The notes: generated by a model from the letters alone, not told the origin. A DNA stretch of 64,000 bases from Candidatus Latescibacterota bacterium (GCA_965222075.1 OZ244937.1:1824001-1888000); one strand, 5' to 3'. Positions 13,798 to 38,609 are shown, numbered from the stretch's first letter. Made by a program: numbers and translations.

Positions 13798-15366
13798 TTG
13801 GGCAAAGCGCACTCCAGGCAAAGACATCAAACCGGCGCCAGGGTGGGCTACGAAGCCCAGCTCTGGCAGATGGCCGATACCTTGCGCGGCAGCATGGACG
13901 CCGCCGAATACAAACACGTCGTTCTCGGCCTCATCTTCCTGAAATACATCTCCGACGCCTTCGAGGAGAGGCATGCCCGCCTCGAAGGGGAGCAGTCACA
14001 GGGGGCAGATCCCGAAGACCCCGACGAGTACCGCGCCCAGAACATCTTCTGGGTGCCGCCCGAGGCCCGCTGGACACAGCTCAAGGCGCACGCGAAACAA
14101 CCCACCATCGGCCAGTTGGTCGACGATGCGATGGCCGGCATCGAGCGCGACAACCCGGCGCTCAAGGACGTGCTGCCCAGGGACTACGCCCGCCCCGCGC
14201 TCGACAAGACCCGCCTCGGCCAGCTCATCGATCTCATCAGTAACATCAAGGTGGGCGATGAGGAGGCCCGGTCCAGGGATGTCCTCGGCCGTGTGTATGA
14301 GTATTTCCTGTCCCAGTTCGCCAGCGCCGAGGGCAAGAAAGGCGGTGAATTCTACACCCCGCGCTGCGTCGTCAAACTGCTGGTTGAGATGCTGGAGCCC
14401 TATCAGGGCCGCGTCTACGACCCTTGCTGCGGATCATCCGGCATGTTCGTGCAGTCGGTCGAGTTCATCCACGCTCATCAGACGGGCAACGGCAACGGGG
14501 GAAAAGCGCCGGAAGGCACCAGGACCGACATCTCGATCTACGGCCAGGAATCGAACTACACGACCTGGCGGCTGGCCAAGATGAACCTCGCCATTCGAGC
14601 CATCGAGGGGCAAATCGCCCACGGCGACAGCTTCCACAACGACCGCCATCCCGACCTGAAGGCCGACTTCATCCTGGCCAATCCACCGTTCAACGTCTCC
14701 GACTGGGGTGGCGAGCGGCTCACCGACGACAAGCGCTGGCAATACGGCGCCCCGCCCAGGGGCAACGCCAACTTCGCCTGGGTGCAGCACATGGTCCACC
14801 ACCTGTCTCCCAATGGCGTCGCCGGCTTCGTGCTCGCCAACGGCTCGATGTCGTCCAACCAGTCGGGCGAGGGTCAGATCAGGAAAAGCCTGATCGAAGC
14901 GGACCTGGTGGACTGCATGGTGGCGCTGCCGGGCCAACTGTTTTACTCCACCCAGATTCCTGCCTGCCTGTGGTTTATTGCCCGCGACCGAAGGCACGAA
15001 GTCCTCTTCATCGACGCCCGCAAGATGGGCCGCATGGTGGACCGCACCCATCGCGAGTTGACCGACGAAGACATCGCCCGCATCGCCGAGACCTACCACG
15101 CCTGGCGGGATGAGGACGGCGCGGACGAGTACGCCGACATCCCCGGCTTCTGCAAGGCCGCGACACTGGAAGAGATCCGCAAGCACGGCCATGTGCTCAC
15201 CCCCGGTCGCTACGTCGGCGCCGAGGCGCAGGAGGACGATGGGGAGCCGTTCGAGGACAAGATGACGCGGCTCGTTGCGCAACTCCGCGAGCAGCAGGCC
15301 GAAGCACGGAAACTGGACGCTGCGATTGAAGAGAACCTGAAGCGGCTCGGGTTCGGAGACGATTGA
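13798..15366 (+). CDS. hsdM: Type I restriction-modification N6-adenine methyltransferase subunit M
   Basis: [41 protein letters not shown]. Confidence 0.97.
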
Positions 15367-15380
15367 TGGTGACGGTCCAC

Positions 15381-15460
15381 TCGAACTTGATCGAAGCGCT
15401 GTCGCTTCTCGTGGCAGCACCTGCTCGGGATTTTCAAGCACCGATTCGAGAAGATGGAGG
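15381..15460 (+). pseudogene. Orphan ~80 bp fragment of the AAA ATPase gene that starts at 16461
   Basis: tcgaacttgatcgaagcgctgtcgcttctcgtggcagcacctgctcgggattttcaagcaccgattcgagaag matches 16584-16656 with few mismatches. Confidence 0.8.
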
Positions 15461-15580
15461 TGAAAGAAAGACGGTTCGCGAACTATTTTTGATCAACTGA
15501 AGTCTTGACACCGGCCAATTAAGTAATTACTATAATTACAATCCTTCTGCTCAGGGGAAATTCCAACAAAGGGTAACGCA

Positions 15581-35250: not shown

Positions 35251-35472
35251 GCGTACAAATCGTTGACCACGGTGGAATATGTGGGAGGCGCCCAGGCCAG
35301 GGGGTGGACACGGTTTCGGGACCGGCTGTGGCAGCGGAACTACTACGAACACATTGTGAGGGACGACGAGTCCCTTGGGAGAATCGAAGGATATATTCTC
35401 GACAACCCGGCAAATTGGTCACTCGACGAAGAGAATCCCCTGAACGTGTCGACGGTATCGGAACCCCTATGA
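34864..35472 (+). CDS. REP-associated tyrosine (Y1/HUH) transposase, RAYT
   Basis: [46 protein letters not shown]; truncated copies at 34300-34680 and about 33880-34120. Confidence 0.92.
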
Positions 35473-38400
35473 CCACCATCACCGAAGCCGACGTTGAAGT
35501 CGCCGCCCTGGACTGGCTGGCGGGCCTCGGTTGGCAGGTCGCGCACGGGCCGGACATCGCGCCGGATACACCGAACGCCGAACGAGGCGACTACGGGCAG
35601 GTCGTGCTGGAACCGCGCCTGCGGGATTCCCTTGCCGAACTGAACCCCGCCCTGCCCCCCGACGCCCTTGACGACGCCTACCGCAGGCTGACCCGCCCCG
35701 AAGGCTCGACCCTGGAGGCACGCAACCGCGCCTTCCACCGGATGCTCGTCGACGGTGGGACAGTGGGATACCGGGGCGACGATGGCGCCGTCCGCTGGGA
35801 ACAGGCAAAGGTCATCGACTTCGACAACCCTGGCAACAACGACTGGCTGGCCGTCAACCAGTTCACCGTCACGGAGAATAAGAACACGCGCAGGCCCGAC
35901 GTGGTGCTGTTCGTCAACGGCCTGCCCCTGTGCGTGATCGAGTTGAAGAACCCGGCGGACGAGGACGCCACCATCTGGACGGCATGGCACCAGCTCCAGA
36001 CCTACAAGGCTGAACTGCCCACCCTCTTCTCCATGAACGAGGCGCTCATGGTCTCGGACGGGACCGAAGCCCGCATAGGCACGCTGACCTCCGGCAGGGA
36101 GTGGTTCAAGCCCTGGCGCACTATTGCGGGGGAGACGCTGGCCGACCGGCTCTTGACCGAGCTTCAGGTAATGCTGGAAGGTGTCTTTGAGCGAAGCCGT
36201 TTCCTCGGGCTCGTCCGCGACTTCATCGTTTTCGATGACGACGGCAGCGGCGCGCTGGAGAAAAAGATGGCGGGCTATCACCAGTTCCACGCGGTCAGGG
36301 TCGCGGTTGACGAAACGCTGCGCGCGGCGGAGTTACAACGATCAGCCGACAGGACCGTTGACACTGGCGGAAGGTACGAGACGGGCCGCAAGCCCGGGGG
36401 TGAGGCCGGCGACCGCCGTATCGGCGTGGTGTGGCACACTCAGGGGTCCGGCAAGAGCCTGACCATGGCCTTCTACGCCGGACGGATCGTTCTCGACCCG
36501 GCCATGGAGAACCCCACCATCGTCGTCCTCACCGACCGCAACGACCTGGACGACCAGCTTTTCGGCACCTTCTCCCGCTGCCAGGATCTGCTGCGCCAGC
36601 CGCCAGCCCAGGCGGAGAGCCGGACCGACCTGAGAAACAAACTCTCGGTGAATGCCGGTGGCGTGGTGTTCACAACGATCCAAAAGTTCTTCCCCGAGGA
36701 GAAGGGCGATACCCACCCAACGCTCTCCCTGCGCCGCAACATCGTGGTCATCGCCGACGAGGCCCACCGCAGCCAGTACGACTTCATCGACGGATTCGCA
36801 CGCCACATGCGAGACGCGTTGCCCAACGCCTCTTTCGTCGGCTTTACCGGTACGCCCATAGAACTTCAGGACGCCAACACGCGGGCCGTGTTCGGGGACT
36901 ACATCAGCATCTACGACATCCAGCGTTCCGTCGAGGACGGGGCCACGGTGCCGATCTACTACGAGAGTCGGCTGGCCAGGCTGACGCTCGATGAGGCCGA
37001 GAGGCCGCTCATTGACCCGGAGTTCGAAGAGGCGACCGAAGGCGAGGAAGTCGAGCGCAAGGAGAAGCTCAAGACCCGCTGGGCACAGCTCGAAGCCATC
37101 GTCGGCGCCGAGAAGCGGCTGAAGCTCGTCGCCGAGGACATCGTCGCCCATTTTGAGCAAAGGCTCGAATCCCTTGATGGCAAGGCGATGGTCGTCTGCA
37201 TGAGCCGACGCATCTGCATCGACCTCTACCACGAACTGGTGAGGCTACGCCCTGATTGGCATCACGAGGATGACGACAAGGGGTACCTCAAAGTCGTGAT
37301 GACCGGTTCGGCCTCCGACCCCGTGGATTGGCAGCCGCACATCCGCAACAAGCCGCGACGGGAGGCGCTGGCCAAGCGGTTCCGCGACCCCGACGATCCC
37401 CTGAGGGTCGTGCTGGTGCGCGACATGTGGCTCACCGGCTTCGACGCGCCCAGCCTGCACACCATGTACGTGGACAAACCGATGCGCGGCCATGGGCTGA
37501 TGCAGGCCATCGCCCGGGTCAACCGCGTGTTCAGGGATAAGCCGGGCGGCCTCGTCGTCGATTACCTGGGACTCGCCCACGAACTCAAGCGCGCATTGGC
37601 GACCTACACCGAAAGCGGCGGCACCGGGCAAACCGCACTCGACCAAAAAGAAGCGGTGGCGGTCATGCTGGAGAAATACGAAATCTGTTGCGGCCTGTTC
37701 CACGGCTTCGACCGGTCCAGGTGGATCACCGGCACACCGGCGGAACGCCTGAGCCTGCTACCGGCCGCGCAGGAACACATCCTGGCGCAAGAGAACGGCA
37801 AGGACCGCTGCGTGCAGGCGGTGCGCGAGCTTTCCCAGGCCTTCGCCCTGGCCGTCCCCCACGAGGACGCGCTGCGCATCCGGGACGACATCGGGTTCTT
37901 TCAAGCGGTTCGAGGGCAGCTGATGAAGCGGGCCGGCGGCGAGGTACGTCCGGAGGAAGAGTTGGACCACGCCGTGCGCCAGATCATCTCCCGCGCAGTG
38001 GCCTCCGAGGGCGTCATCGACATCTTCGCCGCCGCGGGTCTGGAAAAGCCGGACATCTCGGTGTTGTCGGACGAGTTCCTGGCCGAGGTGCGGGGGATGC
38101 CCCAGCGCAACCTCGCAGTCGAGCTGTTACAGAAGCTACTCAAGGGCGAACTCGCCACCCGCCGCCGGAAGAACGTCGTCCAGGCCCGTTCTTTCGCCCA
38201 GATGCTGGAACAGACCCTCCGCCGCTATCAGAACCGCGCCGTCGAAGCCGCGCAGGTGATCGAGGAGCTGATCCAGCTTGCAAAAGACATGCGGGAGGCC
38301 AACGCCCGCGGCGAGACGCTCGGACTCTCGGCGGACGAACTGGCCTTCTACGACGCGTTGGAGACCAACGACAGCGCCGTCCAGGTCCTGGGCGACGAGA

Positions 38401-38609
38401 CCCTGCGCACCATAGCCCGCAAGCTGGTCGAAACCGTCCGCAACAACGTCACCATCGACTGGACCCTGCGCGAGAACATCCGTGCGCAGCTGCGGGTGCT
38501 GGTCAAGCGCACGCTGCGCAAGTATGGCTACCCACCCGACAAGCAGGAAAAGGCAACACAAACCGTCCTGGAGCAAGCCGAGGTCCTATCCGCCGGATGG
38601 GCTGTGTGA
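35469..38609 (+). CDS. hsdR: Type I restriction endonuclease subunit R
   Basis: [63 protein letters not shown] overlaps the RAYT stop. Confidence 0.97.

Follow-up and report, generated by a model that had tools for sequence, protein, structure and literature searches.

We analysed a window of 64,000 nucleotides from Candidatus Latescibacterota bacterium (GCA_965222075.1 OZ244937.1:1824001-1888000), which lies inside a single 5.36-Mb contig of 59% GC. The window was confirmed to carry an intact-looking type I restriction-modification (R-M) operon, composed of hsdM, an hsdS fused to a nucleotidyltransferase (MNT) domain and hsdR, that is swollen to 25 kb by cargo genes. Dead hsdR starts and hsdM ends, termed scars below, lie between these cargo genes, and scars of the same polarity are found in related operons across phyla. 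We consider it likely that the slot between hsdM and hsdS (M-S) and the slot between hsdS and hsdR (S-R) grew through successive mergers with members of the same operon family that carried different loads. The three core genes are the following.

13798-15366, + strand: hsdM, intact type I methyltransferase of 522 aa (Pfam N6_Mtase and HsdM_N; PADLOC MTase_I).
22573-24381, + strand: nucleotidyltransferase-HsdS fusion of 602 aa (Pfam Polbeta and Methylase_S; PADLOC Specificity_I).
35469-38609, + strand: hsdR, intact, 1046 aa (Pfam HSDR_N, SWI2_SNF2 and T1RH-like_C; NCBIfam TIGR00348 above cut-off).

The three genes lie where a first-pass annotation of the sequence had placed them (open reading frames (ORFs), Pfam, PADLOC). 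They are open and co-oriented, the type I gene set is complete by Pfam, PADLOC and NCBIfam, and the system appears to be in working order. Its nearest HsdR relative (93% over the available part) comes from a record labelled Candidatus Latescibacterota. As had been proposed, about 20 cargo genes share the orientation of the operon: 20 intact ORFs, all on the + strand, lie between hsdM and hsdR, with a GC content of 49-63% compared to 64-65% for hsdM and hsdR. The 20.1 kb separating the hsdM stop from the hsdR start is the largest distance measured, the range being 1.3-14.0 kb in 74 other loci, of which the cross-phylum ones were viewed with 10-kb flanks only.

To locate scars, profiles built from relatives with this genome excluded (18 hsdR starts and 17 hsdM ends) were scored at all 10.7 million positions on both genome strands. 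The scars and candidates within the operon are listed with their profile ranks.

28149-28205, + strand: hsdR 5' scar of 16 codons with a 9-nt leader; 82% over 50 nt (28149-28198, self-comparison); profile site 28158, rank 4.
30246-30303, + strand: hsdR 5' scar overlapping the PIN stop codon; rank 2; 30247-30300 is 79.6% identical to the hsdR start.
33822-33861, + strand: hsdR 5' scar overlapping the SIR2 stop codon; profile site 33828, inside the 33822 peptide, rank 6.
29110-29157, + strand: possible degenerate hsdR 5' scar, not established; rank 39, with ~0.09 expected per 26-kb strand.
16304-16366, + strand: hsdM 3' scar joined to a coding-like remnant; rank 4.
20999-21307, + strand: hsdM 3' scar of ~100 codons in open frame, its stop overlapping the DUF2442 start; rank 1, above the live hsdM (rank 2).
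18451-18478, + strand: third hsdM 3' stub (probable) that overlaps the start codon of the Schlafen gene; aligned with the hsdM-end/Schlafen-start junctions of eight other loci.

The scars are real. Six had been proposed in the first-pass annotation, and five of them (16304, 20999-21307, 28158, 30246 and 33822) outrank nearly all genome positions even though the profiles came from relatives only. The sixth, near 29119, is weak and was not established: the candidate at 29110 falls within the GIY-YIG ORF, whose homolog in genome G030 ends in a similar acidic tail, in frame. With the hsdR-start profile, the live hsdR ranked first, a minus-strand site at 3538 third and an unrelated site fifth. This stub at 3538, outside the operon, had not been noticed before, nor had the cargo-gene remnants described below or the stub at 18451-18478, which is not among the top profile matches. 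The overlaps of 30246 with the PIN stop, of 33822 with the SIR2 stop and of the live hsdR with the RAYT stop were found as described earlier. No cargo gene ends at the 28158 scar, which begins 139 nt after the Mrr stop. The profile scan gave no hsdS-end scar above background in the window, and no age gradient of scars from hsdS toward hsdR is visible at this locus.

None of the three firm hsdR scars is identical to the live start or to another of the three (15-20 matches of 27). The long hsdM scar is 82.6% identical at the nucleotide level to the hsdM end over 293 bp (self-comparison, 20999-21285). Over 77 codons aligned with the live gene it shows 18 synonymous and 15 non-synonymous differences, the proportions per site being 0.34 (pS) and 0.08 (pN) and their ratio 0.25. 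Because of this low pN/pS and the lack of any stop codon, the long scar was part of a working allele until recently.

We then compared relatives. Among 41 genomes searched, this one included, 24 carry the same HsdR family at E <= 1e-100, and up to 40 kb around 21 hsd loci were compared. The cargo is different at every one of the 21 loci, yet drawn from a common pool. The polarity of scars was scanned in 20 loci of M-S-R order (this one included, two distant paralogs left out). Matches to the hsdR start fell between S and R on the coding strand in 23 cases and downstream in one, with none on the other strand. Matches to the hsdM end fell five times in the M-S slot, once upstream, once downstream and once, with a low score, on the minus strand, two more being pieces of split live genes; matches to the hsdS end fell seven times in the S-R slot and once downstream. 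A search of species genomes added 80 hsd loci from many phyla, several of the taxa being, we presume, sponge symbionts. Among the 73 of these loci with a located hsdR start, 17 showed 22 hsdR-start matches on the upstream coding strand (654 kb), and none was found in three control sets, opposite strand or downstream (1.85 Mb). The scars are polar and spread across phyla. HsdR relatives at 80-88% identity belong to records labelled with many phyla, so that donors are on hand.

Altogether, 39 hsdR scars were counted in 27 of 90 loci, including two borderline matches in locus L101 (score 28) that may be false. An ORF of at least 80 codons ends against the scar in 20 of the 39, compared to 57 of 90 live starts and 206 of 4250 random positions (4.8%). 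Homologs of the cargo had been expected beside intact hsd ends, and for part of the cargo this was observed: the PIN stop overlaps the live hsdR start in 6 of 10 loci, the Schlafen start overlaps the live hsdM stop in 6 of 12, mazE lies 3' of hsdM in 2 of 3, and MNT lies on a live hsd gene in 1 of 2. The ends of the scars are variable, ranging from column 34 to column 183. Genome G011 has a fusion of an hsdR start with an hsdS end, placed in a stretch common to both genes; such a joint requires two operon copies, and loci L143 and L119 carry similar fusions, judged by eye. Short shared sequence is also present at the joint of the ATPase piece described below, whereas no parental sequences were found for the hsdR-scar joints of the window. 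Furthermore, the genome has four other type I loci; three unrelated ones among them repeat their own gene ends, as expected if the process depends on homology.

These other loci have features of their own. One (G000:C1:5131831-5157272, on the same contig) belongs to another family and spans 25 kb. Its hsdM end recurs as two repeats and its hsdS end as one, and it has an hsdR-start scar. The loci at G000:C1:1277800-1292800 and 398300-406000 also repeat their own hsd ends, the latter with a short tandem repeat (~9-bp period) and a 620-bp duplication. In locus L017, the hsdR (that of genome G006) has three internal stops, and cargo and scars persist.

Combined, the variable cargo from a shared pool, the polar scars, the live junctions and the selection on the long hsdM scar support the earlier proposal that cargo was taken from homologous hsd loci by recombination at the hsd ends. 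In the mechanism we favour, incoming DNA from another hsd locus would pair inside hsdR (or hsdM) and undergo ordinary homologous recombination on one side, and the second side would be closed by a short-homology joint. The donor would supply its cargo together with its own hsdR start (or hsdM end), which would become the live one, and the resident end would be stranded as a scar beside the older cargo. This could happen in a single step, by homology-facilitated illegitimate recombination, or in two, by tandem integration and collapse. Varied scar lengths, hsdR-start::hsdS-end fusions and cut cargo genes would be expected because the joint can fall anywhere. Later, deletions would erode the scars and two-sided recombination would exchange whole loads; selection for intact R-M would presumably retain only gene-restoring events, and toxin-antitoxin cargo may resist loss. 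The recombination events, the number of steps and the route of DNA entry are inferences. The genome contains comEC and dprA, which would permit DNA uptake and are also present in 10 of 14 control genomes.

Several points weigh against growth by merging. No recombination event or intermediate was observed, and Kirchberger et al. 2017 (PMC5361080) note that recombination of this type is rarely seen experimentally. No live hsdR-start junction was found for SIR2 (0 of 4), GIY (0 of 1) or Mrr (0 of 1), and no live hsdM-stop junction for DUF2442 (0 of 9) or ATPase (0 of 2), all small samples. Nine of the 39 scar ends lie at columns 46-49, a crowding that exceeds a flat distribution. When donor tracts were sought in hsdR and hsdM with sliding windows, the best neighbours shifted along the genes, a shift that base composition may explain. 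The pN/pS values of short hsdR scars, 0.51 and 0.34, rest on 16-18 codons. Related loci are non-independent, so that scar counts overstate the number of events. Finally, not every joint is a capture, because an ATPase remnant and a RAYT tandem in the array are local duplications. The idea that each block would carry a clean hsd scar was not upheld, since many joints are cargo-gene remnants and local duplication with collapse also contributed.

The cargo genes and remnants between which the scars lie are given below; REP stands for repetitive extragenic palindromic sequences.

15381-15460, + strand: 80-bp ATPase-gene remnant, 91% identical to 16584-16663; pN/pS 0.98, on few sites.
15581-16155, + strand: mazE-mazF toxin-antitoxin pair (Pfam PemK_toxin; MazE below cut-off).
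16461-18334, + strand: ABC-type ATPase and DUF4276 pair (HEC-01A/B; Pfam, PADLOC).
18315-18454, + strand: remnant of a DUF2442-DUF4160 pair, 72% identical to 21469-21608.
18475-20238, + strand: Schlafen/AlbA_2 and HATPase_c_4 protein (Pfam).
20342-20981, + strand: MNT-HepT toxin-antitoxin-type pair (Pfam NTP_transf_2, HepT-like; PADLOC PDC-S09).
21304-21841, + strand: DUF2442-DUF4160 toxin-antitoxin-type pair (Pfam).
21871-22143, + strand: small conserved ORF of ~90 aa, with homologs in 11 hsd loci.
22166-22582, + strand: NTase_sub_bind (HEPN-type) gene (Pfam).
24584-26857, + strand: large NERD-like protein at 49% GC; in a look-alike Atlas cluster, 15% of the members have NERD.
26884-27014, + strand: unnamed cargo-gene remnant; its counterpart in genome G018 is a 348-codon open frame.
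27054-28019, + strand: Mrr-family nuclease (PDC-S02; Pfam, PADLOC).
28264-29142, + strand: GIY-YIG-like/DUF4357 protein (PDC-S14; Pfam, PADLOC).
29316-29480, + strand: RAYT fragment, a REP half and a leader common to the satellite slot (self-comparison).
29549-30249, + strand: Phd-PIN (VapBC-type) pair (Pfam PIN; Phd below cut-off).
30444-32077, + strand: DUF4365 and partner (PDC-M02A/B; Pfam, PADLOC).
32074-33822, + strand: SIR2-like protein (PDC-S65; Pfam, PADLOC).
33878-34863, + strand: broken RAYT pieces with REP hairpins and a 564-bp tandem repeat, 96.8% over 758 bp (self-comparison).
34864-35472, + strand: RAYT-like HUH transposase, whose stop and the hsdR start overlap; NCBIfam REP_Tyr_transpos matched below cut-off (E 3e-12).

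The five toxin-antitoxin-type pairs announced in the first-pass annotation are all present, the fifth making use of the MNT domain fused to HsdS. PADLOC matched 8 of 19 scanned cargo ORFs to HEC or PDC models, the 90-aa ORF being outside the scan. The embedded cargo corresponds to known or candidate defence families and would probably serve in defence. The GIY-YIG label is based on a motif. No Pfam match was found for the NERD-like protein, a gene for which also lies shortly 3' of hsdS in genomes G018, G020 and G009. The 90-aa ORF has no family match in Pfam or NCBIfam; its homologs come from several phyla and often lie immediately 3' of hsdM. The mazEF block is 94.8% identical to a block 3' of hsdM in genome G003. 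A sigma70-like site precedes it (15505-15533), in a promoter scan that overall, like the terminator scan, gave counts at chance level. The 80-bp ATPase remnant is missing at the matching site of G003 and is a local duplicate; a further ATPase remnant lies at 20254-20281. A coding-like remnant at 16157-16303 is joined to the 16304 hsdM scar; a resemblance to Fic was rejected, with no Pfam or cargo-pool match. The genome contains 8 exact REP 25-mers, and the REP hairpin at 35142-35239 is in frame within the RAYT coding sequence.

Around the core genes, in-frame inserts in the hsdS linker (23588-23761) consist of short elements recurring elsewhere in the genome, and comparable in-frame inserts split hsdM in genomes G003, G018, G020 and G021. 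A 66-bp promoter-like host segment (13691-13755) lies just 5' of hsdM. In the closest relative the same segment (L100:1413-1478) lies just 3' of hsdR, before a heparinase-like gene, placing the operon on opposite sides of the segment in the two genomes. Repeats of 200-300 bp, of a family that has dozens of copies in the present genome, are found 3' of the relative's heparinase-like gene (L100:4229-4942). Two low-GC stretches (45-52%) lie 3' of the operon in the window, at 42001-50000 and 54001-57000.

Cargo was also found outside the operon, upstream of a gene that we take, from its sequence, to be uvrA-like.

3465-5008, - strand: satellite slot with a REP half, a leader, an AAA_14/DUF4143 gene (4857-3535) and the hsdR start stub at 3538 (rank 3).

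The stub overlaps the stop of the AAA_14/DUF4143 gene, and in locus L112 this gene lies directly on a live hsdR start. The leader of the RAYT fragment in the operon (29367-29480, 114 bp) is 99% identical to 4992-4879. In the congener G001 (C206 ~9640-10500, locus L153), this slot is occupied by RAYT pieces, an hsdR stub unlike the one here and a mazEF pair 97% identical to the pair 3' of hsdM here. The REP half is present in the slot of both congeners, and RAYT coding pieces flank the slot on both sides in G001. From the slot contents in the two congeners, cargo also departs from the operon together with its stub and is exchanged at a second site. REP homology as a passive anchor accounts for this, and an active RAYT would be the bolder reading. 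No hsdR stub and no array cargo were found at 28 of 30 uvrA loci examined (1.5-kb flanks). The uvrA-like gene is thus no general hotspot, hsd-type cargo being limited to two loci of the 30, both of this genus. An AAA homolog beside uvrA in genome G007 turned out to be a neighbouring host gene. The size of the locus and the satellite slot with different hsd-derived cargo in two congeners are new.

Other explanations of the array were weighed. First, cargo with an hsd-end segment could have been copied in place, one copy being reloaded by two-sided recombination between scar and live gene while the rest decays, a course that calls for no one-sided capture. Two local copies do exist, the 564-bp RAYT tandem (96.8%) and the 80-bp ATPase piece (91%, pN/pS ~1), and hsd relics lie outside the operon in genomes G003, G011, G021 and G024, as collapsed tandems would leave them. 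A decaying local copy, however, predicts a pN/pS near 1, compared to 0.25 for the long hsdM scar, and foreign DNA is needed in any case because the cargo genes on the two sides of a scar are unrelated. We regard local duplication and collapse as an unlikely origin of the array.

A broader scheme would make the hsd family a cross-phylum exchange network of bacteria living together, with hsd ends as sockets for defence modules and with a RAYT carried in the S-R slot cutting REPs and exporting modules with hsdR stubs to satellite slots. We hold this to be distinctly unlikely; if true, it would mean that cassettes are both gathered and exported without an integrase, and it would be a first cargo-moving role for RAYT. 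More narrowly, RAYT, as an HUH nuclease, might cut REP hairpins and move or capture REP-bounded cargo modules, into the satellite slot as well. RAYT pieces are indeed found 3' of the 33822 scar and 5' of Phd-PIN, a RAYT piece adjoins an hsdR fragment in G003, and the satellite slot combines a REP half in both congeners and RAYT pieces in G001 with different cargo. Nevertheless, a REP motif lies within 60 nt after only 1 of the 39 scars (the two satellite stubs being outside this count), the satellite slot being the exception, and on this ground RAYT was rejected as a general driver. Furthermore, most scarred relatives have no RAYT match in the compared region, scars in the M-S slot and in other type I loci of this genome occur without RAYT pieces, and REP homology alone could anchor passive recombination. 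This makes a RAYT-driven origin quite improbable.

A trans-acting site-specific recombinase with attachment sites near hsdR codon 16 and the hsdM end, as in integrons or tRNA-targeted islands, is very improbable. It would fit the crowding of scar ends at columns 46-49, and tyrosine recombinases are encoded elsewhere in the genome. The spread of scar ends over columns 34-183 rules out a fixed crossover site and largely refutes this explanation. Scars are also present at three distinct gene ends and in hsd families that are unrelated; 12 intergenic regions yielded no attC-like motif, and the seven PF00589 matches all lie more than 1 Mb away from the window.

A chimeric assembly of strain variants, the objection that the first-pass annotation had raised against itself, is extremely improbable, as single contigs (0-4 differences) from three studies bridge eight junction regions and scars recur in dozens of separate assemblies, even if the lineage is uncultured, its community is rich in close hsd homologs and many compared contigs are only 90-95% alike. 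Six public runs contained half or more of the sampled words, and contigs of four runs were compared; one bridging run may be the source sample. Two runs with small shares (0.12 and 0.05) are no guide to habitat. The bridged regions cover the hsdM end and mazE (15327-15824), the 16304 scar (16168-16592), the 18451 stub (17600-18487), both sides of the long hsdM scar (20585-21091 and 21118-21626), hsdS and the NERD-like gene (24276-25124), 2.3 kb from NERD through Mrr and 28158 to the GIY start (25939-28271), and M02B-SIR2 (31618-32115). For 30246, 33822 and the RAYT tandem, no bridging contig was found among the matches listed. As to strain heterogeneity, the read joints listed had sides under 30 letters and fell mostly within REP repeats.

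The embedding of defence genes is already published. Under the name 'guilt-by-embedding', genes inside type I R-M, BREX, DISARM and Hma loci were described (Payne et al., bioRxiv 10.1101/2024.01.29.577857), PrrC lies in EcoprrI (PMC12707154), and DarTG2 was found between hsdS and hsdR at a site called a potential recombination hotspot (PMC12255303). The present locus likewise has extra genes between hsd genes, and its cargo matches the HEC-01, PDC-S02, S09, S14, S65 and M02 models of Payne et al. It contains 20 genes, whereas the Hma survey of these authors allowed up to three per gap. The HEC-01 of Payne et al. gave no protection against the phages that they tested. Scars are not described in the accessible text of these three papers; the word 'recombination' is absent from the main text of Payne et al., where the significance of embedding is left open. 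A literature search found no publication on hsd-end scars between embedded genes, most subscription papers being outside its reach. The main survey of embedding does not settle how defence genes come to lie in R-M operons; with the scars the joints are on record, and a mechanism open to testing follows from them. A gene found against a dead hsdR start or hsdM end was at one time carried with an R-M operon, and scars can therefore nominate defence candidates, even where the gene now sits elsewhere. The scar pattern is general and not unique to this genome.

Chromosomal defence islands have been shown to undergo homologous exchange (PMC12829572). The E. coli immigration control region (PMC12707154) resembles the present locus in being hypervariable and rich in R-M, with no mobilising integrase reported at the anchor. 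That region is bounded by two host genes and its variation comes from replacement, whereas here the anchors are hsd genes and content is added. With the RAYT/REP elements of Bertels et al. 2017 (PMC5581495) the locus shares a RAYT-like gene, REP hairpins and a few dispersed REP copies. Here RAYT is mostly one cargo among many, and the available text of that paper draws no link to type I R-M or cargo transport; a link of RAYTs to type I R-M was borne out neither there nor in the literature search. In the window, REP hairpins accompany the RAYT pieces.

In an integron, accessory genes that share one orientation, with many toxin-antitoxin pairs among them, are arrayed between short recurring separators, and the array varies between relatives. 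The array described here has the same appearance, a co-oriented, toxin-antitoxin-rich series with short recurring spacers that is variable between relatives. The spacers here, in contrast, are dead gene ends, the crossover is variable and several cargo blocks have their own leaders. No integron integrase was detected, there being no PF00589 match in or near the window, as the first-pass annotation had claimed. An attC core/inverse-core pair was found in 0 of 12 intergenic regions on either strand in a simple motif test. With breakpoints that are not fixed and no attC-like motif, the label of integron-like array was given up; no sign of excision, of reordering or of a gradient in expression was seen either.

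The mechanism suggested by the scars has precedent in type VI secretion system (T6SS) and Rhs arrays. In the displacement arrays of T6SS effector-immunity modules of Vibrio cholerae, the same mechanism and the comparison with integrons were proposed (Kirchberger et al. 2017, PMC5361080, where Rhs orphan modules are also cited). On the reading favoured here, as in the T6SS arrays, a conserved gene end serves as anchor, an illegitimate join closes the opposite side, older modules are pushed away from the anchor and remnants stay; neither has a known integrase, and ordinary recombination also moves arrays as a whole. The T6SS arrays consist of cognate effector-immunity pairs, of which the old effector disappears, whereas here R-M anchors stand on both sides, the cargo is unrelated and of defence type, and old cargo is often intact. 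Remnants of the anchor ends lie between the modules, on the module-facing side, as defines a displacement array, and by this analogy the locus appears to work like a displacement array and not like an integron.

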